From positions 3,945,460 to 4,009,459 of the forward strand of contig CP070695.1 in assembly GCA_020353515.1 (NCBI GenBank): a stretch of DNA of 64,000 bases, written 5' to 3'. Both the position numbers and the translations under genes were made by a program. Source of the stretch: Candidatus Heimdallarchaeota archaeon (GTDB lineage: Archaea; Asgardarchaeota; Heimdallarchaeia; Hodarchaeales; Hodarchaeaceae). Below, piece by piece: positions 33,049-58,919 of the stretch. Below the pieces are notes generated by a model. It did not search any database, had not been told where the DNA came from, and was given only the letters and a program-made list of their open reading frames with translations. Within the stretch, counting starts at the first letter, position 1. Each line of letters starts with the position of its first letter.

Positions 33049-33209
33049 GAAAAATACGGTATCGATTGATAATTTTAGATTTTGACGTTTATAACATCTT
33101 CGGAATGCATAGATATCAAATCCAGTGATTTTTGTCCAGGGGTCACGAATTTTTTTTAATTAGATTGTATATATAATACCAAAAGATAATAGGATTCATG
33201 TGATAAATA

Positions 33210-33933: not shown

Positions 33934-33937
33934 TTTC

Positions 33938-34384: not shown

Positions 34385-34395
34385 TTGGTTTCTAA

Positions 34396-35343: not shown

Positions 35344-35560
35344 TTGTTTACACCACTTTTCATGAAGTTGCGTATTTTACTCTCTTTCTAATCTTCGAAT
35401 ATTTAATGGTTTTCGGTGGAGGAGGACATTTTTCGTTCTTAAGTATCAAATGAGAAATACAAGGATAATTTTTAAAAGCGTAACAAAAAAAAAAGCTTCT
35501 AATAATTACCTCGTGTTAAGTGTTCAAAGCAAAGTTGGTTGAAGAAGAGTTGAACTAATC

Positions 35561-36577: not shown

Positions 36578-36596
36578 GGGCTTTTTGGAAACCAGA

Positions 36597-40592: not shown

Positions 40593-43500
40593 TTAACTCA
40601 AAAATAACATTCTCCCCTTTCCACTTATTTCTACAATCTTGCTTTTCCCTTTTTTATGTTCATGCAGATAACCTGTAAGTATTAACTGTTTTATCCGCTT
40701 TCTTACAGTTGGCCGGCTGATCTTTAACCCCTCACCAATCCCAGAATATGATGGTTTCAATCCGAGATTATTCTGTTGATAGACGAATCTCAGAATTTCT
40801 AAATATTCTTCAGCGATTTTAGCCATAAAACGAGGCTCTATTTGGTGTGTTTCTTTTTCTAAGATAAGTAATTCCCGTTCTGATATAGTGGCGCTATCTA
40901 TAGACAAAATAACGACTAAATTTCTTAGATAGGTTATTTCTTTTAATTTATAGACAAATTGAATCGCGTTTTCGAGACCTTCTTTTAAAAAAAGGTATTC
41001 TAGACGATCAATCAGGATCACACTTTTGCTAGGTGTGTTCTTTATAAGATTTATAAGTCTATTATATCCTTTCTCTTCTGTTAGCCAAAAAAAATCGTAC
41101 TCTCCTTCCATATATGCTCTAAAGTCTTTATTTGGAGTTCTGGAGGCAACAAATCCTTTGTACCCAATAGTAGTAAGCTCGGAAAACACTGTTTTTGATA
41201 CTGTTGGAACTTCTTCTGTGATGAGATAAACATTACCATCTTGAATTTTATATTTTAGGAATTCTTTCTTTAATTCTTCTTCGCGTTGTTTAATTGCAGT
41301 TATGTCTTCTACCATCAGTAGGAAATTCAGTGGATTACCTTTATCGTCTTTCAAAAGGGATAATGCTACCCGAACCCAAAGAATATCTTCATTTTTCTTG
41401 AGATATCTTTTCTCTGTTTGAAATGAAGAAATTTCATTATTTAGTAATTTTTTAATATGTTCTTCATCTCGTTCACGATGTTCTTCATGAGTTATATCAA
41501 GAATAGTCCTTTGAGTCAGCTCATTTCCTTGGTATCCTAACATTTCCTTAAAAACGTCATTTACTTCAGTAAAACTGAAATTTAGATCCGTTAAAGCTAT
41601 CCCAAGTGGCGAATTTTCAAAAACTGACCGAAATTTTTCTTCACTCTCCCGAAGTGCCTCTTCAGTTCTTTTATAATCAGTAATATCAGACCAAAAGCCT
41701 ACAATCTCGAGAGGTTTCCCTTTTTCGTCTTTAACAAGATTTGCTTCATCAAGCATCCAACGATAGGATCCCTTCTTATGTTGAAATCTATAAGTATTAC
41801 TATAATTCCCTTCCTCCAGAATATCTTTAAATGTGGTAGAAACTTGTTCTTTTTCATCAGGGTGTAATTTCTGTTCCCAAAACTCTGGAGTATCAATGAA
41901 GCTCTTAGCCTGATATCCTAGGATATCCTTGATGTTCTCACTCATAAAAGTGGTTGAAAAATGACCACCAGGAGTACACGAGTAGATCACTGCTGGACAT
42001 GACTTAAGTAGATATTCGAGTCTGAATTTCGTACTTCTCAGCTCATCCTCTACGATTTTTCGTTTGGTTATATCTGTGGAGATCAAACCTAATCCTTCTT
42101 CAGTCTTGAAGGCTTTTACTGAAACGATTCTTTCACCTGTAAGTGGATGACGAAAAATACGATCTGAGAGATATGGTTTTCCTGTTCTAAGGACTTCTTC
42201 ATATTTTCCAAGATGTTGTTTATCAAATTCTTCTATATTTTTCCCAATAATATCCTCTTTTTTAGTTCCTACAGGAAGCATTCCTAAACCTGTCTTATTT
42301 ATATCAATTAAATTGAATTCAGAATCCCAAATAGTAAAAGAATCGGTCGCTGCATCCATAAATCTTCTTAATCTTTCCTCACTCTTACGAAGCGCGTTTT
42401 CCATATTTTTTCGATCAGTTATATCGGCTGCTACTATCCCTAAGCCGTCTCCTACTTTAAACGCTTTCACAGATAGAGTCATATCTCCATAATTTTGAGG
42501 TGGAGCCACTCTCTCCGCGATATAGGGAATTCCTGTTTTTAGAACTTCTTTATAACGGAGAATATCTTCATGGTTGGTATGAAACTCAGTTATATTCCTC
42601 CCTAAAACCTCTGTTTTCTCAATCCCAAGTAAAAAAGTCTTCAATCCAGTTTTATTTATATCTATTAGATTTAGATCAGAATCAAAAAGAGAAAATGAGT
42701 CTGTTGCTCCATCCATAAAACTACGCAGCCTTTCCTCACTATTAAATAGAGCTTTTTGTGCGTTAATCCGATCTGTGATGTCTTCTACGCTGCCTTCGTA
42801 ATATTGCATTTTTCCATGTTTATCCTTTATTGATCGTGCATTCTCTCGAAAATGAATAACAGATCCATCAGGTCGTTCAAGATGGAATTCTAATCCCATT
42901 ACCTCTCCTTTTTCTTCAATTTCCCTTAAAAATCGATCTCTCGGATACTTCCTAATAATCGCTAGATGATTGGAATCAATCTCGATTAACTCGTCGAAGG
43001 AAGATAATCCAACTAGATTAAGGAATGCAGGATTTGCTGCGAGAAATTTGTGATCAGGTGTGCTGCGATAAAGACCAATGGGGATGTTTTCAAACAAAGT
43101 TCGATATTTTTCTTCACTTTCTTGTACTGCTTTTTTCATCCGCTTTTGATCAGTAATGTTTCTTATACCAAAGACAATTTTTAGATTATTCTCATGCTCA
43201 ATGGCTTTTCCTGAGGCTGTGACCCAAATATAATGACCCTTATTATGTTTTATTCGATATTCAAATTCAAATCTCTGTTTTCCAGACAGACATTCCGTCA
43301 GAATTCTAAAAGCATTTTCTATATCATTAGGGTGAATAAAATCATAACTATTTTTCCCGATCAATTCTCTAGGTTTATACCCAAAAAGATCAAAAATCTG
43401 TGGACTGACAAAGATGAATTTTCCCTCTTCGTCAACTTCTGCTACAACATCTGTAAGATTACTTATTAACTCACGATAATTCTTCTCACTTTCTCGTAAT

Positions 43501-44258
43501 TGTTCTTCAATGTGTGTACGTTCAGTAATGTCACGAATAATCGTAATGACTTGCACGACTGATTCATCATGCAAAATTGGGATTTTACGAGTTTCTGTGA
43601 AAAATTTCTTACCATTAATCGTAGTAGCTTCTTCAGTGACTAGAGTTTGGCCTGAGGAAAATACAGTGTGGTACTCATTTAGAACGAGATCGGATAAGAA
43701 AGGGAATGCCTCACGAATGGTTTTCCCCACTAAAGGTGTTTCAAAATTGAGTTCTTTGAGCCACTCAGAAAAAGCTGGGTTTGCTAAGATTATTACGAAA
43801 TCTCGGTCAATGACGTGAAGTGGATCTCCTAGAGATTCAATAATGGTACGATATTGCTGTTCTGATGATCGTAGTAATTCTTCAGATTGCTTACGTTCTG
43901 TTATATCTCTTGCAATCCCTAAATATCCAGTGATTTGCCCATTAATGACTTGGGGGGTAGATTTTGCCTCTAAAGTTATAATATCCCCTGACTTGCCAAA
44001 AATTCGAGCTTCATAAGGTGGGACTGTTTCTCCATCGATAGTCGCCTCGAAGCCATTAACTACCACCGACGTATCTTCAGGATGAACAATCTCGAGAAAA
44101 TGTTTTCCAATCCATTCCTCCCGAGACCATCCTGTGACTTTTTCAAATTCTTTAGTAACTGACGTAATCATGCCATCAGAAGACAGAGAAAAGATAATAT
44201 CACGAATATTATCTAAAATAAACTGACTTTGCTCCTCAATAAGGGATAGAGTATCCAA
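40593..44258 (-). CDS. Multi-PAS (about 8) + DUF835-like + wHTH one-component sensor
   Basis: Repeated HP.D and DIT.RK PAS/PAC motifs; VILIDRLEYL; ISRPTVRKRI HTH; no kinase domain. Confidence 0.88.
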   Translation of the reverse strand: MDTLSLIEEQSQFILDNIRDIIFSLSSDGMITSVTKEFEKVTGWSREEWIGKHFLEIVHPEDTSVVVNGFEATIDGETVPPYEARIFGKSGDIITLEAKSTPQVINGQITGYLGIARDITERKQSEELLRSSEQQYRTIIESLGDPLHVIDRDFVIILANPAFSEWLKELNFETPLVGKTIREAFPFLSDLVLNEYHTVFSSGQTLVTEEATTINGKKFFTETRKIPILHDESVVQVITIIRDITERTHIEEQLRESEKNYRELISNLTDVVAEVDEEGKFIFVSPQIFDLFGYKPRELIGKNSYDFIHPNDIENAFRILTECLSGKQRFEFEYRIKHNKGHYIWVTASGKAIEHENNLKIVFGIRNITDQKRMKKAVQESEEKYRTLFENIPIGLYRSTPDHKFLAANPAFLNLVGLSSFDELIEIDSNHLAIIRKYPRDRFLREIEEKGEVMGLEFHLERPDGSVIHFRENARSIKDKHGKMQYYEGSVEDITDRINAQKALFNSEERLRSFMDGATDSFSLFDSDLNLIDINKTGLKTFLLGIEKTEVLGRNITEFHTNHEDILRYKEVLKTGIPYIAERVAPPQNYGDMTLSVKAFKVGDGLGIVAADITDRKNMENALRKSEERLRRFMDAATDSFTIWDSEFNLIDINKTGLGMLPVGTKKEDIIGKNIEEFDKQHLGKYEEVLRTGKPYLSDRIFRHPLTGERIVSVKAFKTEEGLGLISTDITKRKIVEDELRSTKFRLEYLLKSCPAVIYSCTPGGHFSTTFMSENIKDILGYQAKSFIDTPEFWEQKLHPDEKEQVSTTFKDILEEGNYSNTYRFQHKKGSYRWMLDEANLVKDEKGKPLEIVGFWSDITDYKRTEEALRESEEKFRSVFENSPLGIALTDLNFSFTEVNDVFKEMLGYQGNELTQRTILDITHEEHRERDEEHIKKLLNNEISSFQTEKRYLKKNEDILWVRVALSLLKDDKGNPLNFLLMVEDITAIKQREEELKKEFLKYKIQDGNVYLITEEVPTVSKTVFSELTTIGYKGFVASRTPNKDFRAYMEGEYDFFWLTEEKGYNRLINLIKNTPSKSVILIDRLEYLFLKEGLENAIQFVYKLKEITYLRNLVVILSIDSATISERELLILEKETHQIEPRFMAKIAEEYLEILRFVYQQNNLGLKPSYSGIGEGLKISRPTVRKRIKQLILTGYLHEHKKGKSKIVEISGKGRMLFLS

Positions 44259-44751: not shown

Positions 44752-45009
44752 CTGACTTAATAAACTGCCCAATTTTGTCCTTAACTTTCTATATCTCCCT
44801 TATCATTTAATCATCTTTTCACGAGTTCTCTCTCTCCTAGAGCTTGTGATGTTAAGAAAGAATCTACTCGTTCCCTACCTTTGTAAAACTTTTTTAATCC
44901 CATTTCTTGTCATTATGTAATTCTTTGAATTAAGCGACGATTTGTCGCAGGAAGGGTTTTTCACCCCTTTTTCCTGCATTTGTATGATTAAATTCAGAAG
45001 TTGATTAGA

Positions 45010-46137
45010 ATGGCAAAATGGGATCTTACTATTTATGAATCTTCGGATAAAAAAGAAATCCGTAATCGTTTTCGGCTTACTAAGAAAACCATGACCGCGG
45101 CTGGTCAACATGGTAAGGCGATTATTTTAGAAGACGAAAAGAAGAAGGAATGGCTTCTCAAGACCTTTGCGAATATTATTGATTTTGAACTGAAAGAGAT
45201 TCAAGATTTAGAGGTTGATCTAAAAGAATCTCCTGAGGATAGTCGTGGTCGGATGCATTTATGGCGTACCTTTAATGAATTGACTGCTTCTCGCCTTGGC
45301 CGCTGTTTACACTTAAATGTCCCTGAGGCTATCATTGTATGTTCTCAACAGGTTGCTGATCATCCTCTCACCCAGACTACAACGTTACCTCTTGGTGATG
45401 TAATCATACTGGATGAGGATGAAGAAGGGGAGACTGCTGAAGAATACTATCAACTTTCTGGGCGAGAACCGTATACATTAGAGACCTCCTCCAAATTTGA
45501 AAAGATATTATCAGAGAAAGGGGGTCGTGGGGATCCTACGTCTGTCCTCGCAATTCTTCTCGAAAAAATCCCCGACACTATCAATCTTGACGAATTTTTG
45601 GACTCCTATGACGATGTGGATGAAGCCTTTCAAATTGTTCAGCAAATTGATGATGGATACACTCTTCTCCCCTTTGATGTTTGGTTGAATGACCCTGATC
45701 GAAATGCAGGCAACTACCTAGTCCAATTCGATAAATCAAAACAAGCACAAAAGATTTGGGGGATTGATTATGAGATGTGGGCACTAGGATCTGATATCTG
45801 GATGGAAGAAGATGAAATAACTAAAGGTAGAAGTTATCTTACTGCGATTATTCATCCTAAAAGTAATATTTTTGATCCACGAGTTAACGAAACTGTCTAT
45901 CGGATCCGTGAATTATCCGATGAATCCCTCTCTGCAATGACACGTACTCCTCAGCTAGCATGTAAATTCTTTGAATATCACATTAGCAAGCAAGGCCTTG
46001 ACCCTGATGAGAGAGTAAAGCTAAAACAAGCCGAAACCAACCTTGAAGACTTTCTCATTGAATCTCGACCTCGCTCCGACAAACTTAGCGATATCCTTGT
46101 CCGACAGATTGGTCTTCCAAAAGATTTCAAACCTTAA
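45010..46137 (+). CDS. HipA/PI3K-PI4K-like atypical kinase
   Basis: WLLK, NELTASRLG..L.LNVP, FDVWLNDPDRNAGN, WGIDYE. Confidence 0.75.
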   Translation: MAKWDLTIYESSDKKEIRNRFRLTKKTMTAAGQHGKAIILEDEKKKEWLLKTFANIIDFELKEIQDLEVDLKESPEDSRGRMHLWRTFNELTASRLGRCLHLNVPEAIIVCSQQVADHPLTQTTTLPLGDVIILDEDEEGETAEEYYQLSGREPYTLETSSKFEKILSEKGGRGDPTSVLAILLEKIPDTINLDEFLDSYDDVDEAFQIVQQIDDGYTLLPFDVWLNDPDRNAGNYLVQFDKSKQAQKIWGIDYEMWALGSDIWMEEDEITKGRSYLTAIIHPKSNIFDPRVNETVYRIRELSDESLSAMTRTPQLACKFFEYHISKQGLDPDERVKLKQAETNLEDFLIESRPRSDKLSDILVRQIGLPKDFKP

Positions 46138-46172: not shown

Positions 46173-47606
46173 TTAATACTTTCCATCTGATGAGGATGTT
46201 CCCTTAACAATTGATACTGAGGCTGAGGCTCCAATACGGGTTGCGCCAGCCTTAATCATTTCTTCTGCTGCTTCGTGAGTTCTTATCCCTCCTGCTGCTT
46301 TAATTCCCATTTCAGGGCCAACAGTTTCTCTCATTAATGCTACATCCTCAACAAGTGCTCCTGCTGTACTAAACCCAGTGGACGTTTTAACGAAGTCTGC
46401 TCCTCCTAACTTAGATAAAAGACTTCCTTTAATTATCTCTTCCTTTGATAATAGCGCGGTTTCTAAAATGACTTTAACAAGAGCTTTTCCTTCTGCTGCT
46501 TGGACAACTGCTTCGATATCTTTTCTAACGAGATCATCATTCCCTGATTTTAACGCCCCCACATTAATGACCATATCAACTTCCTCTGCTCCATTTGCAA
46601 TCGCATCACGAGTTTCTATTGCTTTCACGGTTGGGGTAGTTGCCCCTAAGGGAAATCCAATGACTGTGCACACCTTCACAGGACTATCTTGGAGAAAGGA
46701 TTTGGCCAGTTTGACATTGGTTGGATTGACACAAACTGAAGCAAATTCATATTCTTTGGCTTCTTCACAGAGTTTTCTTATCTCTTCTTCTGTTGCATCA
46801 GCTTTTAGTACAGTGTGATCGATATATCTTGCTAAAGCTTGGTCAAAATTAGTCTGTCCAGGTTCCACTCCTATTCGTGATGCTCCACCATTAACTAAAA
46901 TTTGATACGCTGCTGTATATTCGTTAGCCACTTCTTTTCCAGCTGAACTAACAGTATATGGTAATTCCATTGATGGAATCGCCCGTACGGGGATTTCTCT
47001 AGTCATTTCACGTATATCAAGTACTGTTATCCCGATCTCTCTCAATTGGTTAATAATCTGGGTTATTCGTTGTATTACTGGTTGAGGAATATCTTCTGGT
47101 GATTTCTGACAACAAAAGATTGAATTCTTTGCAGCTATGACTGGAACGCCATTCATAAGGGCAAAAACCATGGTAATGGTTCCAAGGGAATCAGCATTCA
47201 ATGCTGCTACTTTTGCAGCGGTATTTAAGGATAAGACAGGAACATACAAAGTATCTGTATATGGTAATATTTTCTCATGAAATTCTTGAGTATACTCGGT
47301 GACGATTGTTCCTCCCTCGGAGAGACCTCTTATTTTTGGAATTCCAATTATTTGTTCTGCGGATTTTGTCATAACAACATAGATATTCGAGTAACGACTC
47401 ACAATAATAGCAATTTGACGATAAACTTCTTCTAGTTCCATATCACCCCCACAAAGTAAGATTATGACTGAATTATAGGTACTTACTGATCTTTTTGGGC
47501 CTTGGATAGGTGAAAGCACTGACTCCTTTTGAACAGCTCTTTCTTGACCTAATTTCGACAATACCTGCTCTGATATTCTTCGAACTAGCTCTTCATCTAT
47601 TTCCAT
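46173..47606 (-). CDS. deoC: Encapsulation peptide + flavoprotein-like domain + deoxyribose-phosphate aldolase
   Basis: [35 protein letters not shown]; N-domain [14 protein letters not shown]. Confidence 0.92.
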
Positions 47607-47608
47607 TA

Positions 47609-47917
47609 CTAACTTCTCCTATAACTTTCAGTTAAATCCCGTTGTTCTCCTTTGGTTTTGATAAAGTCCACAATTCCTACTACTAACGCATCGACCGCCC
47701 CTTTATCATCTTTCATAATACCACGAATAGAATTTCCTTCTTGTATTATAAGTACACAATCTCCTATTCCAGCTTGAGCAGTATCAAGAGCTATGAATGA
47801 ATCACCAGAAAATTTGCCATTTAAATCTACAGGACGAACGACTAGAATTTTATAATTCTCATGACTCTCTGTCTTAATGGTTGCCACAAGTGTACCAATT
47901 ACTCTAGCCAAAATCAT
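47609..47917 (-). CDS. BMC-P vertex protein (EutN/CcmL family)
   Basis: [15 protein letters not shown]...[11 protein letters not shown]...DALVVGIVD. Confidence 0.95.
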
Positions 47918-47925
47918 TGTTTTTT

Positions 47926-48366
47926 CTACTCCGAAGGTTTCTTCGTTTGAGGAGGTTTGGTTTTAGCGATTGTTTTCCTAGGGGCCCTTCTCCTTGAAGG
48001 TTTTTTCTTTGGAGGTTCTCTTGTTTTCGCAGGTTCTATATCTTCACTCACTATTTCTACTTTCTCTTTGATTGGTTTAGTTTTCTTTTTTGCAGCTTCA
48101 ACCACAGTATATTCCTCAACAAAACCAACAACGCATTCATCTATAGGAACTAATTCTCTAGGTATCGCAATAGCAGCCTCCTTCTTACTGACGATATAAA
48201 CTATATCTCCCTCTCCTGCAGTATATATTCCATCAGCAGCCACATAAGGGTTCCCAATAGGTTGGAAATTATCATCCAAACCTTGAATAATAAGGAAGCG
48301 CAATCCTTCAAGTCCAGGGTCTTTCACAGTAGCTACGACATTACCAATGACTTTTCCAAGCTTCAA
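47926..48366 (-). CDS. BMC-P vertex protein with basic C-terminal tail
   Basis: MKLGKVIGNVVATVK...AADG..AGEGD...DECVVGFVE plus Lys/Pro tail. Confidence 0.93.
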   Translation of the reverse strand: MKLGKVIGNVVATVKDPGLEGLRFLIIQGLDDNFQPIGNPYVAADGIYTAGEGDIVYIVSKKEAAIAIPRELVPIDECVVGFVEEYTVVEAAKKKTKPIKEKVEIVSEDIEPAKTREPPKKKPSRRRAPRKTIAKTKPPQTKKPSE

Positions 48367-48370
48367 GATC

Positions 48371-48823
48371 TTACAACAACTTCTTTTTTTCTAATTCGCG
48401 AATCTTATTTACACGGCGTTCATGACGACCCCCCCCGAAAGGAGTTTTTAACCACATTTTCACGATTTTTTGAGCCGTTTCTGCATCTATTACTCGAGCC
48501 CCAAGAGTTAGAATATTTGAATCATTGTGTTCTCGTGCTGAATGGGCGGTGAATTCGTCTGTACATGGTGTCGCTCTAATATTCTTGATTTTGTTGGCAA
48601 CGATTGCACTTGCCACACCAGTGCCATCAATGATGATCCCTTTACTCTCTAGCGAAACTGCAATATCTTGGGCCACTGATACAGCAATATCGGGGTAGTC
48701 TACTGCATCAGAAGTATAACACCCATAATCTTCTACTTCATAACCAAGACCTCTTATGAAGGCAATAAGATGTTTCTTCAATTCAAATCCACCATGATCG
48801 CTACCAATGATTATCTTTTTCAT
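48371..48823 (-). CDS. rpiB: RpiB/LacAB-family sugar-phosphate isomerase
   Basis: GSDHGG, VDYPD, ANK, AREHNDSN, FGGGRHERRV. Confidence 0.92.
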   Translation of the reverse strand: MKKIIIGSDHGGFELKKHLIAFIRGLGYEVEDYGCYTSDAVDYPDIAVSVAQDIAVSLESKGIIIDGTGVASAIVANKIKNIRATPCTDEFTAHSAREHNDSNILTLGARVIDAETAQKIVKMWLKTPFGGGRHERRVNKIRELEKKKLL

Positions 48824-48853
48824 TTTTATGCCTCACATCGATCATACTTACTA

Positions 48854-49402
48854 TTATAATAAATGTTTTAGCAAATCTTTGTGCGGAGCTGGAATAATTG
48901 TAGTAGACAGAACCAAACCTTCATCTTTTACCCGATTTACAGCTGCACTGATTGCAGCTTTAACTGCTCCTACTTCACCTGTGAATAATGCAAAAGCTTT
49001 ACCCCCCAAGGCACGACTCAGTCGTATCTCGATCAATTTAATTTTGGCACTTTTGACTGCCTCATCAGCAGCCATAACTGCTGAGGGTGCTGAATAAGTT
49101 TCTATCATTCCAATGGCACCAATTTCTTCGACAGAAGTAGTTCCACTAATCGCTGGAAATACTTCAGGATGAACATTAGGGATAATTGTGAACCCAGTTA
49201 CAGTTTCTCCAGCTGTCCTGCTACCTATATCCATTGAGCTTTTTATTGACGAGATTGTACCTTGAATTATGATCAAGTATTTTCCTGGACATACGGGTGT
49301 CGAAACCAATAATTTCACATCAGCAGCTTTAGCCATGGAATCGGCAGCAAGAAGTCCTCTCGCCATGACATTGGTTTCTATGATTCCAATTGCACGCATC
49401 AT
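48854..49402 (-). CDS. pduT: BMC-T tandem shell protein, PduT-like
   Basis: Two BMC domains; CPGKY motif; LGGKAF. Confidence 0.88.
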   Translation of the reverse strand: MMRAIGIIETNVMARGLLAADSMAKAADVKLLVSTPVCPGKYLIIIQGTISSIKSSMDIGSRTAGETVTGFTIIPNVHPEVFPAISGTTSVEEIGAIGMIETYSAPSAVMAADEAVKSAKIKLIEIRLSRALGGKAFALFTGEVGAVKAAISAAVNRVKDEGLVLSTTIIPAPHKDLLKHLL

Positions 49403-49483
49403 AATGACCTATCAAGTCTAAAGCAGAAAAATAGTCTATTGTACAGAGATGCTTAAAAGGCATCCATTCGTACAAATATCAAA

Positions 49484-49759
49484 CTATTTTCCTGGTAATA
49501 TAGTTTCGACTTCTTCGTGTGGACTTGGGATCACATGTGCTGATATTAATTCGCCAACTTTACGACCAGCAAGAGCCCCTGCTTCAACAGATGCTTTTAC
49601 AGCTCCTACATCGCCACGAACCATCACAGTCACATAACCGCCACCTATTATTTCTTTTCCAATAAGGTGGACGTTTGCTGCTTTTACCATCGCATCAGCT
49701 GCTTCAATAGAAGCAACTAAACCCTTAGTTTCAATTAAACCTAATGCTTCTTTAGCCAT
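49484..49759 (-). CDS. BMC-H hexameric shell protein (PduA/EutM-like)
   Basis: [26 protein letters not shown]...[11 protein letters not shown]...HVIPSPH; GGTGA SD. Confidence 0.97.
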
Positions 49760-49784
49760 TTTTGTTCACCAAATCTTTTTTTTT

Positions 49785-51116
49785 CTAGTTTTTGTTTTCT
49801 ATTATTATTTCATCTTGGATCTTTGTGATAGTTCCATCGATACTTGCATGAACCATCGCTCCAAGAGAATCTTCAGGAATTCTTCCTATCACATCACCTT
49901 CAGACACTTTATCCCCAATTTTTACTGTAGGGATCGCCTGAATACCAATGTGCTGTTTTAAGGGAATTCTCACATAATTAATTTTCAATGTTGGTGTTGT
50001 TATTGGAGATTTCAGATGATCATAATCAGTTAACCCTAACCTTGAGACAAGCCTTTTGGTAGGTAATCGTCTTATCCCCCTTTCAGGATGTATTTCTAAT
50101 TCCTTACGTCTATGAGGATTTTTCATTCCTTCAGTAATTAGCTGATTTTTGATTTCCCATACGATTTTGGCTGGGTCAAGTCCCATGGGACATCCATAAT
50201 ATGTACATGCCCCACAAAATACACACAAAAAGCTACCCGTCAAATCACTATTTTTTACCTCTCCTCCGAATGAAACTACTCGCATGATTCTATCAGGATA
50301 TAAATTATGACCAAGTAAATGCCGAGGACAGACTACGGTACATAATTCACACTTTATGCAAGCAGCATTTGAGATAACAACCTTACGTGGCATCATTTGG
50401 GATTTCATTGATATTAAAAAGTGATCTGCAGGTAGTACAATAATGCCAGATGTTGTTTTTACAATTGGTGACCTAAGATCAGGTAATAATTCTCCCATTA
50501 TAGGCCCTCCTACTATGACCTTATAGGAATCTACTGTTGGACCTCCAGCCAATTTAATTGCAGTTTCTATAGGAGTTCCAATGGGAAAATTGATTGTTTG
50601 AGGTTTTTTCACTGCACCTGATATCGTCACATATCGGGAAATAACGGGTTTTCCCTCCGTAGCTTCGGCCATATGAACCAAAGTACCGATATTATTAACG
50701 ACTACTCCAATATCAAGAGGAATTCCTCCTTCAGGAACAGATTTTTGAAGTATATCTTGAACTAGGACGAACTCATCTCCAGCAGGATAATAATCTTCGA
50801 GAAGAAATAGTTCAATATTCTTTTCTTCAGAAATTACCTTTTTAATTGCATTAACTGAAGGAGAAAATTTCTTTTTTATTGCAATAACTCCTTTTTTCGC
50901 TCCTGTTGCCTTCATCCCTAATTTAAGACCTTCTATTACCTTTTCAGGAAACAAAGCCATTAATTGTTGATCTACACTTAATAGAGGTTCACATTCAGCA
51001 CCATTAGCAATATATGTATTGACTCTGGCAGATATCTTGACGTGTGTGGGAAATCCCGCACCTCCAGCTCCAATGATTCCTGCTTTTCTCACCATTTCTA
51101 CCAAGTCAGTACTCAC
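49785..51116 (-). CDS. pduS: PduS/RnfC-like FMN and Fe-S oxidoreductase
   Basis: GAGGAGFPT, NGAECEP, CIKCELC..CP, CVFCGAC..CP, C-terminal QHIG...VHASIDG. Confidence 0.9.
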   Translation of the reverse strand: MSTDLVEMVRKAGIIGAGGAGFPTHVKISARVNTYIANGAECEPLLSVDQQLMALFPEKVIEGLKLGMKATGAKKGVIAIKKKFSPSVNAIKKVISEEKNIELFLLEDYYPAGDEFVLVQDILQKSVPEGGIPLDIGVVVNNIGTLVHMAEATEGKPVISRYVTISGAVKKPQTINFPIGTPIETAIKLAGGPTVDSYKVIVGGPIMGELLPDLRSPIVKTTSGIIVLPADHFLISMKSQMMPRKVVISNAACIKCELCTVVCPRHLLGHNLYPDRIMRVVSFGGEVKNSDLTGSFLCVFCGACTYYGCPMGLDPAKIVWEIKNQLITEGMKNPHRRKELEIHPERGIRRLPTKRLVSRLGLTDYDHLKSPITTPTLKINYVRIPLKQHIGIQAIPTVKIGDKVSEGDVIGRIPEDSLGAMVHASIDGTITKIQDEIIIENKN

Positions 51117-51141
51117 TTTTTTCTATCCTTCTTTTTATGCT

Positions 51142-52569
51142 TTATACTATTCTAAATGCATCAACTAAAACACACCGTCGTTGACGGGTGAAAGTTCGCG
51201 CTGAGGTTAACCCTTCTCCCGTTGGTCCAGCAATCGTCATGGTAGTATAGCCTTCGCCTCCAAATCCAAGCCCAGCATATGAGGGGGCGTTTTTTACAAA
51301 AATAGTGGTTTCAATGTGTTTTGCTACGAGACTCATGTTTCCTAAACTATCGCTCCACATCGTTGCAGTGTGTTTAAAGCCATGTTCTGCTTTTTTCGCC
51401 CTTGCAAGAGCTTCTTCGATAGTATTTACACGAACGATTGGAAGAATAGGCATTAGTTGTTCTGTGACAACAAAAGGATGCGTATCATCGGGTACTTCTG
51501 CTATTATTAACCGAATATCATCTCCTACTCTGATTCCGATCTGTTCCAGAATATCTGGAGCATTTTTACCGATGAATTTCACGTTTTTTATAGGATGTTT
51601 CTCTCCAGTCGCAGTAAAGACAAGTTTTACCAACTCATCAATTTGCCTTCCTTTTACTTCATACGCACCGTACCTTTGCATTTCAGCCATAAGTTCATCA
51701 ATAATGTTCTCAAATGCAAATACTTCTTTTTCTGCTATACATACAATATTGTTATCAAAACTTGCTCCTTCTATAATTCCCCGAGCTGCTTTCTGGATAT
51801 CCGCTGTATCATCAACAATCACAGGTGGATTTCCTGGGCCAGCAGCAACAGTTTTCTTTCCTGACGTCATTGCTGCCTTTACTACTGCTCCTCCTCCAGT
51901 AACAACTAGACAGCGAATTTTCGGGTGCTTCATTACTGCCTGAGCTGTTTGTATTGTCGGATTGATCACAGAAGTTAGGACATTTTCAGGGCCTCCAGCT
52001 TCAATAATGGCCCGATTCATTAAGCGTATTGTTTCGTTTGTAGCCCTCTTTGCTGCGGGATGAGGATTAAATAAAACAGTATTTCCTGCTGAAACCATAG
52101 AGATAGAATTATTAATTATTGTGGCTGTGGGATTTGTAGAGGGAGTTATAGACCCAATCACTCCATATGGTGCCATTTCAACAAGGGTTAACCCCCGATC
52201 CCCTGTCCATGTTGTTGATTCTAAATCCTCAACTCCAGGTGTTTTTCTTGCACATAGAAGATTTTTAGCTGTTTTATCTTCCAAGCGACCTATACCTGTA
52301 TCTTGAACAGCTAATTCTGCTAGATAACGGGCATGCTTAGTTGCCATATCTCTCATGGAATTAATTATCTCTTTCCTCTTCTCCAGTGAAATAGAAGATA
52401 GTGTACTGTACGCTGCTTCTGATGCTGTTATAGCTTCATCAATAGTTTGAAAGATACCTCCTCCTGATGTAATGGGGATGTTGTCTATTCCAGAATAGAC
52501 TTGATATGCACGAATTCTTTTAACAACTGTATTTACAATCTTGGAGATTTCCTGTTCATCAATTGTCAT
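51142..52569 (-). CDS. eutE: CoA-acylating aldehyde dehydrogenase (EutE/PduP family) with N-terminal encapsulation peptide
   Basis: PSTNPT, VTGG, GPGNPP, FDNNIVCIAEKE, TIAGPTGEG, RQRRC. Confidence 0.93.
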   Translation of the reverse strand: MTIDEQEISKIVNTVVKRIRAYQVYSGIDNIPITSGGGIFQTIDEAITASEAAYSTLSSISLEKRKEIINSMRDMATKHARYLAELAVQDTGIGRLEDKTAKNLLCARKTPGVEDLESTTWTGDRGLTLVEMAPYGVIGSITPSTNPTATIINNSISMVSAGNTVLFNPHPAAKRATNETIRLMNRAIIEAGGPENVLTSVINPTIQTAQAVMKHPKIRCLVVTGGGAVVKAAMTSGKKTVAAGPGNPPVIVDDTADIQKAARGIIEGASFDNNIVCIAEKEVFAFENIIDELMAEMQRYGAYEVKGRQIDELVKLVFTATGEKHPIKNVKFIGKNAPDILEQIGIRVGDDIRLIIAEVPDDTHPFVVTEQLMPILPIVRVNTIEEALARAKKAEHGFKHTATMWSDSLGNMSLVAKHIETTIFVKNAPSYAGLGFGGEGYTTMTIAGPTGEGLTSARTFTRQRRCVLVDAFRIV

Positions 52570-52617
52570 CTATCAACCTCTAATTAATGTTTCATAAAAA
52601 CTCAAAGTTATCATCAT

Positions 52618-52908
52618 TTATTTTGCGTAAGTTTGTTTTCCATCAATCTTTATAAAATCAATAATCGCTTGAATTGTCGCATCAACAGGTCGATCTTTAG
52701 TCATGGCTGTTAAACGGGAGGAACTTCCAGAAACTACCATTACAATTTCACCCTCACCTGCACCTACCACATCAACAGCTACAAATGGGGATCCTTCTGG
52801 TCTAAATTCTTTCATATCAACAGGTTGGACAATAAGCAGTTTGAATGCGTTTAAATTCTCATCTTTTTTCGTACTAACTACATTCCCTATTACTCTACAG
52901 ATTTTCAT
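52618..52908 (-). CDS. BMC-P vertex protein (EutN/CcmL family)
   Basis: VIGNVVSTKK, VAVDVVGAGEGE, GSSSR, PVDATIQAIID. Confidence 0.95.
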   Translation of the reverse strand: MKICRVIGNVVSTKKDENLNAFKLLIVQPVDMKEFRPEGSPFVAVDVVGAGEGEIVMVVSGSSSRLTAMTKDRPVDATIQAIIDFIKIDGKQTYAK

Positions 52909-52919
52909 AAGTATTTCAC

Positions 52920-53645
52920 CTAAATTCTCACAATACGTATACCTAAATCCCGAGCTTTCTCTCGTGCCAAAGGAGTAACGATTGCTGTGCGTGGTACCCT
53001 TAACTCGAGGGTTTTTCCATCCAAAGTCTTGATGTATGTCTCTGTTATGAGATCTGGGATTCGGGGGGGACTTTTTAAAAAGCGTTCTTTCAAGTCATTT
53101 TCATCAAGAACGCCAAACCCAATCTTTACAAGGAGAGAAAGTCTTTTTCTTAATTCTTGATTGATTTTACTTAGTGGTTTATATTCAGAAACTAAATCCA
53201 TTAAATTAAACGGTGTTAATATATATACTGGAACATTATAAAGAAGCCCTTGGATCAATACATTTACTATAGGATCCTCATCTTGAAATTGAATTAATTT
53301 ATCTGCTATCTCAAAGCTAAATGCACCAAAGATTATATACTCTAAATCAATAAAATCAGTGAGAATAAAACTATTTCTTTCACCTATAATAACTTTCATT
53401 GATGGCATTGAAGCGCACCTAACTGAGATTTGGAGGAGAAAATCAATTTCCTCTAGTGTCCAAATTAATACTGGAATTTCTTCGCGAGATAATTGAATTA
53501 AAGACTCGAACAACTTGTCAATACCTTTACCCATATGAGTCAAAATTCCTAGGACCTTGAACGAACCTGAAACCTCTTTGTGCTCTGTTTTCAGGGCCTT
53601 TTCGACTTCACGGGCAACAACTGCTGATAGTTGTTCGTCTTCCAT
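52920..53645 (-). CDS. BMC-associated flavoprotein-like protein with encapsulation peptide
   Basis: N-terminal amphipathic helix; degenerate flavoprotein fold; C-terminal LITE...AIVTPLAREKARDLGI motif. Confidence 0.7.
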   Translation of the reverse strand: MEDEQLSAVVAREVEKALKTEHKEVSGSFKVLGILTHMGKGIDKLFESLIQLSREEIPVLIWTLEEIDFLLQISVRCASMPSMKVIIGERNSFILTDFIDLEYIIFGAFSFEIADKLIQFQDEDPIVNVLIQGLLYNVPVYILTPFNLMDLVSEYKPLSKINQELRKRLSLLVKIGFGVLDENDLKERFLKSPPRIPDLITETYIKTLDGKTLELRVPRTAIVTPLAREKARDLGIRIVRI

Positions 53646-53660
53646 TTCTTATAGGACTTC

Positions 53661-53978
53661 CTAATATTTTTTTTCTTTAAATGCCTTCTTTTCCTTTTTA
53701 CTTAACATTTCAATAGTAGTTAGAATATCAGCAGCAGGTTGGGCAATAATATTTGCTGTGACATATGTGCAAATTGTTTTAGCTTCCTTTCGGGCTTTTT
53801 CAATGGCACTATGTACAGCTGCAACGTCTCCCTTAATTATTAATGTTATTAATCCTCCTGAAGTTCTACTAAGAGATATTAACCTCACATTTGCTGTTTT
53901 CAATGCAATGTCAGTAGCCACAATAGCCCCCAATCGTCCAGACGTTTCTATAAACCCTAATGCTGACATTGAATTCAC
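53661..53978 (-). CDS. BMC-H shell protein (divergent)
   Basis: ALGFIETSG...ALKTANV...KGDVAAV. Confidence 0.9.
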   Translation of the reverse strand: MNSMSALGFIETSGRLGAIVATDIALKTANVRLISLSRTSGGLITLIIKGDVAAVHSAIEKARKEAKTICTYVTANIIAQPAADILTTIEMLSKKEKKAFKEKKY

Positions 53979-55819
53979 CTAAATGGAGAAAAAGTGCTTT
54001 GATCAAGATTTGTAATAATATGACCCAAATCACCGTCGTTCAGTGCAAGAGCATTCCCTTCATCAACATCCAGATGCAATTCAAGCTGGGATAGAGGATG
54101 AATTCTTACTATAATTTCATCCAGAATTCCAGCTCGTTTTCCAGGGAAACTTACAGCGACTTTTTGTTTATCTTTCACCCCAAATTTCGCTGCATCATCA
54201 GGACTCATATGAATATGTCTAGCTGCACGGATAACTCCTTTCTTTATTTGGATTGCTCCTTTAGGGCCAATGATATGAATACCGGGTGTACCTGAAAGAT
54301 TTCCAGAATGACGGATAGGGGGATTTATTCCAAGAACATGTCCATCACTAAGAGAAATTTCAACTTGTGTCTGCTCTTTAAATGGTTTTAGAACACATAT
54401 TCCTTTTATTGACCTTCTAGATCCGACAAGTTCTACTCTTAAACCACACGAGGGTGTTTTTGATTGTTTCAATTCGGAATCTAATCCAAATAAGCGTAAA
54501 AAATCACTTTGACTTAAATGAACATGCCGAGCTGAAAGAGCAACGGGTACCAACCTATCCTGAAAAACCCTTTGTAATTCTTGTTTCACAAACCGTTCAA
54601 CTAAAGTAATATCTTCAAAATGTGCTTCTCTCTCTGTCAAAGGAATATACTCACACCCCAAAGGTCCACAATATCTTCCAATATAATCAGCAGAAGGGCG
54701 GTATAGTACAGGTTTTGCACTCGGAGCTTCTGGAAATTTTTCTTCTAGTACGTGAGCAGCCCAACCAGCAGATCTTGACATTGTAAAAATTGGTGTAAAA
54801 AGGTGCATTGGAATGCCCATGGAAGTATAGACTGAAGCACCGTATAAGTCAACATTTGGATAGATTTCTAGTCCTTTTCGTCTTCTAAATTCTTCTTGTG
54901 TAATTACTACCATTTTATTTGTTGTATCATATATCCATTGAGCAAACTCAGTTTTACCTCGGATTAATCTTTTTGCCATCTCTCTTAATATTTTTGCACG
55001 AGGATCAATGGTTTTATATACCGCATGACCCATTCCCATGATACGTGTTCCTGTATCAAACTGCTTCTTTACCCATTCATCAACATTTGACATTTCTTTT
55101 ATTTCTAAAAGATTCATCATGACTCGTGGGCTTGCTCCTCCATGATATTTCCCAGATAGAGAGCCAATTGCTCCTGAAATGGCCGCATAGAGATCTGCTC
55201 CTGTAGATGCGATAACTCTTGCAGTAAAAGTTGAAGCGTTGAAAGAATGCTCAGCATGAAGAATAAGAGCGATATCAAAACATCTAGCAATGTCTTTTGC
55301 TGGTTCTTCCCCCTTTAACATATAAAGAAAATTTGCTGCATGAGATAATTTCTTGTGTGGAACAATTGGCTTTTTTTCATTCCTAATTCTCTCCCAAGCT
55401 GCTACAATGGTAGGGATTTTTGCAATAATCCGAATTGCTATTCTTCTGTGTGATTCTTTAGATTCATCTGTGATTTCAGGGTCAAAACCTGCTAATAGAG
55501 CAAGAGAAGACTGGAGAACATTCATTGTGGGAGTAGTTTCAGGGGATTGGCGGAGTTGTTCTATTACTTCTTGGGGAATTTCCCGTTCTGCTACTAAAGC
55601 TGTATTTAATTCTTCTATTTGAGTAGAATTCGGTAATTGCCCATAAATAAGCAGATATACTATCTCTTCATAAGTTGAATGCTCTGCTAAATCTTGTATG
55701 CTATAACCTCTATAAAAAAGATTTCCAATTTCTCCTTCAATCAAGCATAGATTAGTATCACTAACTTCAACGCCTCGTAAACCGGTCGATTTTAAACTAT
55801 ACTCTTCAACCATTTCCAT
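53975..55819 (-). CDS. Citrate synthase - PduL (phosphotransacylase) fusion
   Basis: Citrate synthase motifs GLRGV, LFYRGY, NASTF, HGGA, GMGHAVYK, PNVD; PduL motifs RHVHLS, TQVEIS, RHIHM, HLDVDEGNA. Confidence 0.9.
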   Translation of the reverse strand: MEMVEEYSLKSTGLRGVEVSDTNLCLIEGEIGNLFYRGYSIQDLAEHSTYEEIVYLLIYGQLPNSTQIEELNTALVAEREIPQEVIEQLRQSPETTPTMNVLQSSLALLAGFDPEITDESKESHRRIAIRIIAKIPTIVAAWERIRNEKKPIVPHKKLSHAANFLYMLKGEEPAKDIARCFDIALILHAEHSFNASTFTARVIASTGADLYAAISGAIGSLSGKYHGGASPRVMMNLLEIKEMSNVDEWVKKQFDTGTRIMGMGHAVYKTIDPRAKILREMAKRLIRGKTEFAQWIYDTTNKMVVITQEEFRRRKGLEIYPNVDLYGASVYTSMGIPMHLFTPIFTMSRSAGWAAHVLEEKFPEAPSAKPVLYRPSADYIGRYCGPLGCEYIPLTEREAHFEDITLVERFVKQELQRVFQDRLVPVALSARHVHLSQSDFLRLFGLDSELKQSKTPSCGLRVELVGSRRSIKGICVLKPFKEQTQVEISLSDGHVLGINPPIRHSGNLSGTPGIHIIGPKGAIQIKKGVIRAARHIHMSPDDAAKFGVKDKQKVAVSFPGKRAGILDEIIVRIHPLSQLELHLDVDEGNALALNDGDLGHIITNLDQSTFSPFR

Positions 55820-56061
55820 ACCAATATTATTTTATCGTTGGTTGTTCTAGAGTCAATAAATTGTATAAGAACGTATCTTCCGTCTTGAAATATTTCTAAG
55901 ACAATAAGAAATTTAAAAACTTTCCACATTTTATTGAAAATATTTTTTCAGAATTTTAAAAAAAAGTTATCAATCAACCTAATAACGTCGTTAGACGCAA
56001 AATGATAACTTGATAACAGAATAATATCAATCATCCTATCGTACTTTTTTTCAAGTACTAA

Positions 56062-57042
56062 ATGGAAATTTGGAGATTTTCGATGATAATAAGAGGTTTC
56101 TCAGAATTTACTTCTTACAATTGCGCTCATTGCCATTCCAAATGCTGTGCAACTGAATATGACCTACCACTTTTTCCTCACGAAAGCGATAAGCTATGTA
56201 AGAATTATGAGTATTCATCTTTTTTCATTCAATCTACAGATAGAGGAAAAAGGCTGATTCGTGGGGATTCCTGCCCTTTTCTAACATCTCAAGGACTGTG
56301 TCTACTTCACAATACTCAGAATAAACCGCTAATGTGTCAAGTTTATCCTCTAATTCTTTGGAGAATAAAACCAGATATTTACTTATGTTGGATTCATCCC
56401 TGTCGTGGAAATGGATTTCAGTGGTTAGGTGGACATGATCATCAAATTACTGATCATTATTTGACTGAACTGATAGTGAATGTTCAGAATTACTTTGAAA
56501 GCTATTGGGGGGATCAAATTGATCTTGAAAACCCATTTACAGATGTATCTTACAAAAGAGTGCAACAGGAATTTAGTTTCTTTAAACAAAGAAGAAACGT
56601 TATTCTAGTAGACAAAATCACAGAAGTTAATGAGTCAGGAGATTTTTCAGACTATTTTCATTCAATTAGAGAAGTCTTACGTCCATCTTCTCAACATCCT
56701 GAACTTAATACAGTTATTAATGCTGTTCTTCATTGGTTAAGCTGGAGTCCAGTCAGTTTAAAACTAACTTTTCCTAATTCTAAGGTTATTTTCATGATAG
56801 CAGCGATGTGGATTGAATTACATGGTTCATTGACTCTTTCTCGTGTATTAAAACCTTCAGACCAGAAACGTTACCTTAATCAGCTAGGTTCCCTCCTCGC
56901 AACGTCAGTGATGCCTTCATTTTGGAGTTATATAGAAAGGAATGGACATAATGAATCAGTTAAGAAATTTTCAATTCGAGTGAGAAAAATCTTATCAGGA
57001 AAGATTCCACAACAATCTCTTAACGATCTTAAAGGAGTTTAA
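56062..57042 (+). CDS. YkgJ-family (CxxCxxxCC) Fe-S/Zn cluster protein
   Basis: CAHCHSKCC, CPFL...C.LH..KPLMCQVYP. Confidence 0.8.
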   Translation: MEIWRFSMIIRGFSEFTSYNCAHCHSKCCATEYDLPLFPHESDKLCKNYEYSSFFIQSTDRGKRLIRGDSCPFLTSQGLCLLHNTQNKPLMCQVYPLILWRIKPDIYLCWIHPCRGNGFQWLGGHDHQITDHYLTELIVNVQNYFESYWGDQIDLENPFTDVSYKRVQQEFSFFKQRRNVILVDKITEVNESGDFSDYFHSIREVLRPSSQHPELNTVINAVLHWLSWSPVSLKLTFPNSKVIFMIAAMWIELHGSLTLSRVLKPSDQKRYLNQLGSLLATSVMPSFWSYIERNGHNESVKKFSIRVRKILSGKIPQQSLNDLKGV

Positions 57043-57757: not shown

Positions 57758-57855
57758 TGGTAGCGGCCGGAGGATTTGAACCATCCGATCTCGGGGTTTC
57801 TCAAGAAGTATTTCTTTATGAGCCCCGCGGGATAACCTAGCTACCCTAGGCCGCT
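57758..57855 (-). tRNA. Initiator tRNA-Met(CAU) with 19-nt intron and encoded CCA
   Basis: A1:U72, CGGGG/CCCCG anticodon stem, CUCA/UGAG BHB. Confidence 0.9.
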
Positions 57856-58250
57856 AAGCTGTTTGATCTATTATTGACAAGCTTCTTTTTGTTTATAAAC
57901 TCTCACTTATTTTAAACAGTTGTCTGTTTTAATCAATAAACCATTTCCATTGTAAATTCCGTTTTCCATCCTTAAATTATAACTAACAACTTTTTCTTTC
58001 CAAATTAAAAGATGACCTCTCTAGCTTAGTAAACCCAAAATAAAAATGGAATAACGAATGTAACCTGAACAAACTTTTCGAATTTATTAAAAAAAAGACA
58101 AAAAATGAAGTGTACAAGGAGCTCACTTATCTATACCTGTGCCTCGTAAAGAACATCTACTTTTTAATATGAAAATAAAAATGAATCTTTAGCAAGGTGT
58201 GAGAAAATAAAAAGTAATATCGGAATTATTTGGAATGGAGATATTCTGAG

Positions 58251-58553
58251 ATGAAAATACCTGCAAAGATGAGGACATTCTGCCCACATTGTACTAAGCA
58301 CACCGAGCAAGAAGTTAAAATTGAGAAACCAAGACAGCGTGGAGGAGGAATGAGTCAAGGAAGTAGACGAATGGCTCGATGGACAAGTCGAATTGGGAAT
58401 CATGGTAGATATTCCCGTAGGCCTATTGCATCGAGAAATATGACCTCAAAAACTACAAAGAAGGTCGATCTTCGTCTCACATGCTCAGAATGTGGAAAAA
58501 AGTGGATTCGTAGTCGACCTAGGGCTAGAAGAACTGAAATCGCGCGTGTCTAA
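58251..58553 (+). CDS. rpl44e: 50S ribosomal protein eL42 (L44e)
   Basis: MKIPAKMRTFCPHCTKHT...KTTKKVDLRLTCSECGK. Confidence 0.95.
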   Translation: MKIPAKMRTFCPHCTKHTEQEVKIEKPRQRGGGMSQGSRRMARWTSRIGNHGRYSRRPIASRNMTSKTTKKVDLRLTCSECGKKWIRSRPRARRTEIARV

Positions 58554-58580
58554 TTATTATATTGTTATTGAGGAGTAATA

Positions 58581-58919
58581 ATGGCTGAGAAAGAATCCAA
58601 TGAAGTTAATTCTCAAGAATCGCAATCAGAAGAAAGCTCAGATCCCTCGGAGGTTATTAAGAGGCTTGGGAGAACGAAAAAACGGATTCTTATTGAACTA
58701 TATCGCGATTCAGTTGGTTATAAACGGTTAAGTAAAATTATTGGAGTCGGTTTGGACACAATCAGGAGTCATATTCGAACTGGTAAGTATAGTAGATCCC
58801 TCCTTGAACTTGGACTAGTTGAAAGAGGAGAACAAGGCTGGCAATTGACACCTCTTGGCCTTCAGGTGACGGAGTTGCTGCAACAAGATGCCGAGTTTAA
58901 GGCTTTCTTCTTTGAATAA
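58581..58919 (+). CDS. Small winged-helix protein
   Basis: LSKIIGVGLDTIRSHI...LLELGLVE...WQLTPLG. Confidence 0.75.
   Translation: MAEKESNEVNSQESQSEESSDPSEVIKRLGRTKKRILIELYRDSVGYKRLSKIIGVGLDTIRSHIRTGKYSRSLLELGLVERGEQGWQLTPLGLQVTELLQQDAEFKAFFFE

Follow-up and report, generated by a model that had tools for sequence, protein, structure and literature searches.

The closest described relatives of the operon studied here are the type I archaeal microcompartments (AMCs) of Hodarchaeales, reported in November 2025 by Du et al. (bioRxiv 10.1101/2025.11.08.687404; PMC12747264), who found microcompartment clusters in 66 of 111 Hodarchaeales genomes. Our operon occupies 46173-55819 on the minus strand of the window, that is, the whole 64,000-nucleotide stretch analysed, which covers positions 3,945,460-4,009,459 of a single-contig Hodarchaeales (Asgard) genome of 4,943,496 bases. 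It consists of 12 packed open reading frames (ORFs) with intergenic distances of -4 to 81 nt. The type I operon defined by Du et al. comprises two hexamer (H), one T(s) and three pentamer (P) shell genes, together with citrate synthase (CS) and phosphotransacylase (PTAC), DUF, aldehyde dehydrogenase (AldDH), metabolosome NADH dehydrogenase (MNdh), ribose-5-phosphate isomerase (RPI) and Flav-DERA, a fusion with 2-deoxyribose-5-phosphate aldolase (DERA). The same model of 2-deoxyribose-5-phosphate (dR5P) conversion to acetaldehyde as considered below was put forward for it. In their work the K/R-rich disordered tail of P2 binds DNA, T(s) has a CPGK Fe-S motif and is paired with MNdh for electron export, and four cargo proteins carry encapsulation peptides, with peptide-dependent recruitment shown for orthologs. 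Shells made from the orthologs of GCA_003144275 assemble in vitro and in E. coli by transmission electron microscopy. The operon is reported to have been acquired by transfer from Myxococcota and is transcribed in the cultured strain SC1, with very high expression of H2 (PMC12747264).

The operon in the window is a type I AMC operon and as such is already known; the novelty implied by the initial annotation of this stretch does not hold, as Du et al. 2025 (PMC12747264) already report the operon type in Hodarchaeales. Our additions are modest: the loss of acetate kinase (AK) together with an apparently remodelled PduL domain, an alternative DERA-containing cassette in the same chromosomal slot, and a predicted flavoprotein fold for the protein called DUF. 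Considering all the evidence below, we hold it very likely that the window contains an intact, chromosomally fixed and vertically inherited metabolosome operon of the sugar-phosphate-utilisation (SPU) class that matches the type I AMC.

Operon structure and comparison with known metabolosomes

Gene assignments were made with Pfam, and several were sharpened with NCBIfam. In the order of transcription, the genes are as follows (BMC, bacterial microcompartment).

53975-55819, minus strand: CS-PTAC, first gene, 614 aa (PF00285, 2e-122; PF06130, 3e-57)
53661-53978, minus strand: BMC-H1, hexamer shell protein (PF00936, 4e-21; GTG start, 4-nt overlap with the upstream stop)
52920-53645, minus strand: 241-aa cargo protein, the DUF of Du et al. 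(no Pfam match)
52618-52908, minus strand: BMC-P1, pentamer vertex protein (PF03319, 2e-31; dN/dS 0.035)
51142-52569, minus strand: CoA-acylating AldDH (PF00171; PRK15398, EutE/PduP-type, 661 bits against a cut-off of 403)
49785-51116, minus strand: PduS-like metabolosome NADH dehydrogenase with an FMN site and two 4Fe-4S clusters (PF01512, PF10531, PF13534, PF13375)
49484-49759, minus strand: BMC-H2, major hexamer (PF00936, 1e-29)
48854-49402, minus strand: BMC-T(s), PduT-like tandem-domain trimer (PF00936 in two stretches; TIGR02526 eut_PduT, 7e-37)
48371-48823, minus strand: RpiB, ribose-5-phosphate isomerase B (PF02502, 8e-52)
47926-48366, minus strand: BMC-P2, pentamer, TTG start (PF03319 at residues 1-83)
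47609-47917, minus strand: BMC-P3, pentamer (PF03319, 1e-22)
46173-47606, minus strand: Flav-DERA, last gene, 477 aa (TIGR00126 deoC equivalog, 290 bits against a cut-off of 117)

The initial annotation had described 12 packed minus-strand genes of these families, and every one of them was recovered where it had been placed. The shell set contains two single-domain BMC proteins and one tandem BMC protein (PF00936) plus three EutN/CcmL proteins (PF03319), all scoring above the curated cut-offs, and these are the only PF00936 and PF03319 genes in the genome. Sequence comparison within the genus used a sample of 22 species, eight of which carry the operon, most genomes being metagenome-assembled genomes (MAGs). 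Against the closest relative, G014, BMC-H1 shows a dN/dS of 0.27, the highest of the operon. BMC-H2 is 88-99% identical across the genus, with a dN/dS of 0.027 and a dS of 0.18 against G014, the latter far below the 0.5-1.2 of its neighbours. The low dS suggests strong codon selection on BMC-H2, which fits the very high H2 expression reported for strain SC1 (Du et al. 2025). BMC-T(s) contains the sequence VCPGKY and thus the CPGK motif. The C-terminal tail of BMC-P2 is 58 residues long and rich in Lys, Arg and Pro (20 K+R, 9 P, pI 10.4); such tails are found in all relatives, but they are divergent. Archaeal GGTGA Shine-Dalgarno (SD) sites, proposed earlier for at least two genes, were found as SD-like AGGTGA ahead of BMC-P1 and TGGTGA ahead of BMC-H2.

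The first gene product, CS-PTAC, is composed of a citrate synthase (residues 13-363), an amphipathic linker helix and a PduL-type phosphotransacylase (residues 425-593). Comparison of the PTAC part with the solved PduL structure 5cuo gave a match of 1e-42, and both HxH motifs, the Glu of VE(I/V)S and the His of H(L/I)D are retained. A second, housekeeping citrate synthase is encoded elsewhere in the genome, and the fused CS is therefore an extra, dedicated copy. The AldDH has an N-terminal helix resembling an encapsulation peptide (hydrophobic moment 0.72, residues 6-20). The PduS-like protein contains the Pfam domains Complex1_51K, SLBB, Fer4 and RnfC_N; its GAGGAGFPT motif and the Cys clusters C253/256/259/263 and C298/301/304/309 are invariant in 18 homologues, and its closest homologues are named Hodarchaeales or Hodarchaeota, with 61-91% identity. 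Flav-DERA begins with an encapsulation-peptide-like helix, followed by a flavoprotein-like domain (about residues 47-157) and the aldolase (residues 258-467; Pfam DeoC 260-460). The aldolase domain matches the solved DERA 5dbu at 2e-84 and retains the Schiff-base lysine motif VKTSTGF. Flav-DERA, the 241-aa protein and AldDH each have an N-terminal amphipathic helix, and a fourth such helix lies in the linker of CS-PTAC; all four are candidate targeting helices.

The AlphaFold2 model of the 241-aa protein (pLDDT 83) shows an amphipathic helix at the N-terminus, then a core with a flavoprotein fold and, at the C-terminal end, a small domain. A Foldseek search with this model returned UbiX, EpiD and TvaF with probability 1.0 and TM scores of 0.55-0.61 normalised by target length, and the core of the DUF of Du et al. 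is accordingly predicted by the model to adopt a UbiX/EpiD-type flavoprotein fold. The C-terminal domain has an invariant TPLA motif (T201, T224-A227 and A231 are invariant), and a weak match to TIGR02536 eut_hyp was found in the C-terminal part. The label "flavoprotein-like" that the initial annotation gave to this protein thus agrees with the model, though its count of a single such protein falls short, as the N-terminal half of Flav-DERA matches PF02441 weakly (E 0.0078). Given that match, the operon seems to hold two flavoprotein-like modules. BLASTP gave no significant similarity between the 241-aa protein and the N-terminal half of Flav-DERA, and they were not retained as recognisable paralogues.

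Comparison with the type I AMC showed the same gene set and order. Two H, one T(s) with CPGK and three P genes are present, P2 has the K/R tail, and CS and PTAC, MNdh, the Flav-DERA fusion and the four encapsulation-peptide-like helices are found as well, whereas neither triose-phosphate isomerase nor class II aldolase occurs among the 12 assigned operon genes. The host belongs to Hodarchaeales, and inheritance appears vertical, as the operon occupies one slot in eight genomes and its copies form one clade (SH-aLRT 100). The association with AK differs, AK being absent at the operon end and genome-wide, and a lineage-specific deletion in PduL is a feature of the lineage of this genome. The AK-less variant is an accessory-gene difference and does not exclude the operon from the type I AMCs.

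The locus also has the hallmarks of metabolosomes in general, with BMC-H and BMC-P shell genes in one locus and an acylating AldDH together with a PduL-type phosphotransacylase. A DeoC-family aldolase and RpiB are present as in the SPU class, and the SPU-type reading proposed at first is borne out by the deoC equivalog, RpiB, AldDH, PduL and the shell genes. The name and the catalogue of the SPU class reportedly come from Sutter et al. 2021. Bacterial SPU metabolosomes have DeoC, RpiB, acylating AldDH, PduL, a PduS-like protein and the BMC-H/T/P shell in common with our operon, and the bacterial SPU loci L061, L017, L021, L083 and L090 encode a full-length Flav-DERA fusion, as here. In the bacterial loci retrieved, however, only the PTAC part of CS-PTAC aligned and no citrate synthase domain was matched among the best matches recorded; a homologue of the 241-aa protein was found in none of these loci and in one Thermoplasmatota locus. 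Unlike the bacterial SPU loci, our operon resides in an archaeal host and has archaeal SD sites and host-like codon use.

Similar to the Pdu and Eut systems of Salmonella (PduP/EutE, PduL, PduS-PduT), the operon follows a logic in which an aldehyde is made and oxidised to acyl-CoA within the shell, where cofactor recycling also takes place, and in which electrons leave by way of a PduS/PduT-type pair. The signature enzyme here is an aldolase, however, rather than a B12-dependent diol dehydratase or an ammonia lyase. Furthermore, there is no alcohol dehydrogenase for NAD+ recycling, and citrate synthase provides an extra route of CoA release.

Archaeal residence and selection

The operon lies in a slot bounded by a 378-aa ORF beside methionyl-tRNA synthetase (MetRS) on one side and by the eS30/eL42 region on the other. 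Three features border it.

45001-46137, plus strand: 378-aa conserved ORF of no known family, fixed left border of the slot
55820-56061: divergent intergenic region of 242 bp, A+T-rich, the presumed operon promoter region judging from sequence alone
56062-57042, plus strand: 326-aa Cys-rich protein, divergent from the operon (no Pfam or NCBIfam match above threshold)

Neither of the two ORFs that adjoin the operon matched any family. By Pfam, MetRS, an E2 enzyme (UQ_con), eL42 and a GPN GTPase lie in the flanks, joined by Vps4, two Snf7 proteins, EAP30/Vps36, eS30, an L28e/Mak16-family protein and an Arf-like GTPase, a gene set that reads as an Asgard signature. The archaeal or Asgard flanks named by the initial annotation (MetRS, eS30, eL42, ESCRT and Mak16-family genes) were thus confirmed by profile matches.

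The same slot is occupied by the operon in seven other species of the genus, in which the order is MetRS, 378-aa ORF, operon, 326-aa Cys-rich ORF and eL42; the initial annotation had proposed that such copies be sought in related Asgard genomes. The 378-aa ORF lies next to MetRS wherever the slot was read in the genus (12 genomes through the protein itself, plus G014). Identities of the operon proteins in the relatives range from 59 to 99% and track those of the flanking genes. Comparison of 11 operon genes with G014 yielded dN/dS values of 0.02-0.27, compared with 0.056 for the neighbouring MetRS, and the operon is therefore kept by purifying selection. The operon is real and intact and, by these evolutionary criteria, functional.

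The GC content of the operon is 38.3% versus 35.8% for the genome, which places it at the 97th percentile of 9.6-kb tiles. At third codon positions (GC3) the operon has 0.25, compared with a genome median of 0.277, its tetranucleotide distance lies at the 86th percentile, and its synonymous-codon distance lies at the 88th percentile of neighbouring-gene sets. As GC3 and codon use are within the host range, the excess GC derives from the amino-acid content and not from foreign codon use. The flank-like composition noted by eye at first agrees with the GC3 and the codon use.

These data bear on whether the operon might be bacterial DNA misjoined to an archaeal contig, as a chimera or a binning contaminant. 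BMC genes are otherwise bacterial, the CheckM-type contamination of the genome is 7.4%, and the GC percentile just given is high, all of which would suit such an origin. Yet the genome is one contig of 4.94 Mb, both junctions have the same archaeal neighbours in seven independently assembled genomes with a divergence that tracks the flanks, and the low GC3 and the codon distance point to the host. Near-identity to a bacterium, which the initial annotation had named as a finding that would speak against its reading, was not seen either: the best bacterial identity among the matches listed is 80% for the short BMC-H2 and at most 59% for every other protein. The conserved junctions in a closed genome already refute the chimera, and we give it a negligible probability. 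The view of the operon as domesticated rather than contaminating, taken in the initial annotation, agrees with the closed genome, the synteny in eight genus genomes, the purifying selection and the host-range GC3 and codon use.

A phylogenetic tree of AldDH plus MNdh placed the Hodarchaeales copies in one clade (SH-aLRT 100), which groups with a Thermoplasmatota locus, JASLWR01. Among the bacterial loci retrieved, the sister of this group is a Myxococcales MAG with a partner MAG (SH-aLRT 98). The sampling of bacterial donors is incomplete, and the nearest bacterial relatives are those among the matches listed. The tree is consistent with the Myxococcota origin and is no independent proof of it. 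The operon could still be a recently acquired mobile island that has not been domesticated, and its patchy presence (8 of 22 species of the genus) and the interleaving of its states among close relatives on the MetRS tree are what such an island would show. However, the slot is fixed, the composition is ameliorated, the Hodarchaeales copies form the single clade described above, and the operon tree is congruent with the species tree according to Du et al. (bioRxiv 2025.11.08.687404). No transposase or integrase family was matched among the window proteins scanned, which did not include every ORF, in agreement with the earlier remark that none is visible. Recent mobility is thus highly improbable, and we retain the reading of a fixed, vertically inherited operon.

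Proposed reaction cycle and coenzyme A recycling

Based on the gene content and the published orthologs, we propose a reaction cycle for the compartment. The shell, whose composition is given by the genes, would be assembled from two BMC-H, one PduT-like BMC-T(s) and three BMC-P proteins, and the four cargo proteins would be targeted to the lumen by their amphipathic helices. Going by enzyme family, lumenal DERA would cleave dR5P to glyceraldehyde-3-phosphate and acetaldehyde, and the acylating AldDH would convert acetaldehyde, CoA and NAD+ into acetyl-CoA and NADH. The PduS-like protein, docked on the Fe-S-bearing BMC-T(s), would export the electrons and thereby regenerate lumenal NAD+. CoA would be set free by the fused citrate synthase with formation of citrate, by PduL with formation of acetyl-phosphate, or by both. 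By analogy with the ortholog studied by Du et al., the K/R tail of P2 would give the shell vertices an affinity for nucleic acid.

Several points weigh against this scheme. According to Du et al., no Hodarchaeales cell has so far been observed to contain compartments (PMC12747264). The putative substrate dR5P is deduced from the enzyme families only, and RpiB, which is conserved in the operon, takes no part in the reactions proposed for dR5P. A conserved motif of the PduL domain is affected by a lineage-specific deletion, and the genome contains neither AK nor Pta, which bears on the fate of acetyl-phosphate.

The unplaced RpiB raises the question of whether the compartment handles another sugar phosphate, for example ribose-5-phosphate or ribulose-5-phosphate derivatives via RpiB, with dR5P not being the main substrate. 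Two flavoprotein-fold modules of unassigned activity, also encoded, count in favour of this view. On the other hand, the aldolase is a strong deoC equivalog (290 bits against 117), and the alternative cassette of the same slot, described in the next section, likewise has a deoC equivalog beside an acetaldehyde-type oxidoreductase. A different main substrate is therefore improbable in our judgement, and dR5P remains the preferred candidate.

Six of the eight operon-bearing genomes of the genus have a 412-aa acetate kinase (PF00871, 1e-148, read in G015) as the terminal operon gene, located between the 378-aa ORF and Flav-DERA. The gap between these two genes is only 36 nt in our genome; PF00871 gave no match in the whole closed genome, and no Pta was found in it. 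The absence of AK is common to this genome and its sister G014. The same two genomes, and only these, show a 6-residue deletion in PTAC that removes the motif QP(K/G)xFA, together with a change of VRVLGPxR to ICVLKPFK, whereas both motifs are retained in the AK-bearing relatives and in bacteria.

These changes, and the lack of AK and Pta, would be expected if the PduL domain were a decaying relic in the AK-less lineage, kept only as a scaffold or a targeting module. However, the dN/dS between this genome and G014 is 0.07 for the PTAC part, as low as that of the CS part (0.09), and the two HxH motifs of PTAC are retained along with its Glu and His ligands. We consider decay doubtful; the PduL domain appears to be remodelled rather than decaying. 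Since the AK-less lineage also lacks Pta, productive recycling of CoA probably runs through citrate synthase there.

An alternative cassette in the same slot

Examination of the slot in operon-less species revealed a different set of genes. After the 378-aa ORF, on the opposite strand, they encode a 316-aa Cys-rich homologue of the 326-aa protein, a 592-aa tungsten-type aldehyde:ferredoxin oxidoreductase (AOR) and a 289-aa standalone DERA. The latter is a deoC equivalog with 267 bits, and the AOR matches the P. furiosus AOR structure 1aor at 5e-167, while its match to the GAPOR model is weak. The ten genomes of the 22-species sample with an orthologue of the cassette DERA (at least 72% identity) are also the ten with an orthologue of the AOR (at least 67%), and none of them has shell genes. 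At least one of DERA and AOR lies on the MetRS contig by coordinates in nine of these genomes; in G009 both are on another contig. The DERA-AOR cassette and the operon were never found together in the genus. In four outgroup genomes, the standalone DERA adjoins neither AOR nor MetRS.

The cytosolic DERA-AOR pair of these ten species would cleave the sugar phosphate and remove the aldehyde, as proposed for the operon. It differs from the operon in having no shell, in that the aldehyde would be oxidised to acetate with ferredoxin and not to acetyl-CoA with NAD+, and in the lack of CoA chemistry. Its presence in the same slot gives independent support for a function of the locus in the conversion of deoxyribose-phosphate to acetaldehyde. 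There is no mention of the cassette or of AOR in Du et al. 2025.

The remaining genomes show other states of the slot. It is empty in G001 and G016, and in G007 an AMC-type DERA is followed by a scaffold gap of 200 N. G006 retains only an operon-type DERA domain of 227 aa (L135, G006:C153, about 5490-6170; 75% identical), located between the 378-aa and 326-aa ORFs, and its genome has no shell genes. This relic reads as direct evidence of operon loss in place. Separately, operon-type CS matches were observed off the slot at G001:C1:303326-304411 and at G007:C1:691909-692964, the latter in a 615-aa open frame like that of CS-PTAC; in these two genomes, where no shell genes were detected, they may be relics or scaffold misplacements.

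On the MetRS tree the slot states are interleaved, sister pairs differ (G002 versus G013, G014 versus G017) and at least nine changes are needed; this count is read with the caveats that MetRS adjoins the slot, that the relatives are not independent and that most genomes are MAGs. A homologue of the 326-aa protein lies beside the operon in all operon-bearing genomes, and in the DERA-AOR genomes it is the last cassette gene, on the opposite strand. The tree of the 326/316-aa genes groups by cassette type with long branches, and it does not separate recombination from reciprocal loss. From these positions, the 326-aa protein appears to travel with the cassette. As an observation on this Cys-rich family (56062-57042, plus strand, in the window; L108:10080-11030, minus strand), it is fast-evolving, has a CxxCxxxCC motif near the N-terminus and gives no family match. 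The protein could be a regulator or a redox partner shared by both cassettes.

On balance, we incline to the view that the shelled operon and the unshelled cassette of DERA, AOR and the 316-aa protein are mutually exclusive alternatives at one slot, and that the AK-less sub-lineage of this genome and G014, with its remodelled PduL, may rely on citrate synthase as its lumenal CoA recycler.

Several other features of the window were observed in the neighbourhood of the slot. A 1221-aa multi-PAS protein with a C-terminal DUF835 is encoded at 40593-44258 (minus strand), between MetRS and the 378-aa ORF. Among the slots examined, this gene is present only in our genome, G014 and G017, MetRS and the 378-aa ORF being adjacent elsewhere, and it appears to be a lineage-specific insertion beside the slot. 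A segment with eL42 and a 112-aa ORF (58230-58919, plus strand) is inverted here and in G014 compared with the other genus genomes that recover the segment. A tRNA is located at 57761-57855 (minus strand), with a length of 95 nt versus the 71-nt model and 43.9 bits (Rfam gathering score 29); it was missed by ARAGORN and by the Rfam gathering-mode filters and was recovered in the Rfam E-value mode only. The 95-nt span suggests an intron, which supports one of the intron-containing tRNAs claimed earlier, while the plural could not be confirmed. Upstream of the locus, at 19227-37052, the window encodes ESCRT genes (Vps4, two Snf7, EAP30/Vps36), an E2 ubiquitin-conjugating enzyme and an Arf-like GTPase. 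ESCRT/ubiquitin clusters of this type are already known in Asgard archaea.

How far the relatives of the eukaryotic ancestor were internally organised is a question on which microcompartments of this archaeal lineage, the one closest to eukaryotes, have a bearing, as has already been argued in print. The window adds a case from a closed genome in which the operon is intact and under purifying selection. In the AK-less variant, CoA recycling would centre on the unusual fusion protein with citrate synthase. The natural alternation with the unshelled DERA-AOR pathway provides pairs of genomes in which the benefit of encapsulation to the cell could be examined. If repeated replacement or reciprocal loss of equivalent modules is true, naturally matched pairs with and without the organelle would make the selective value of the compartment testable.

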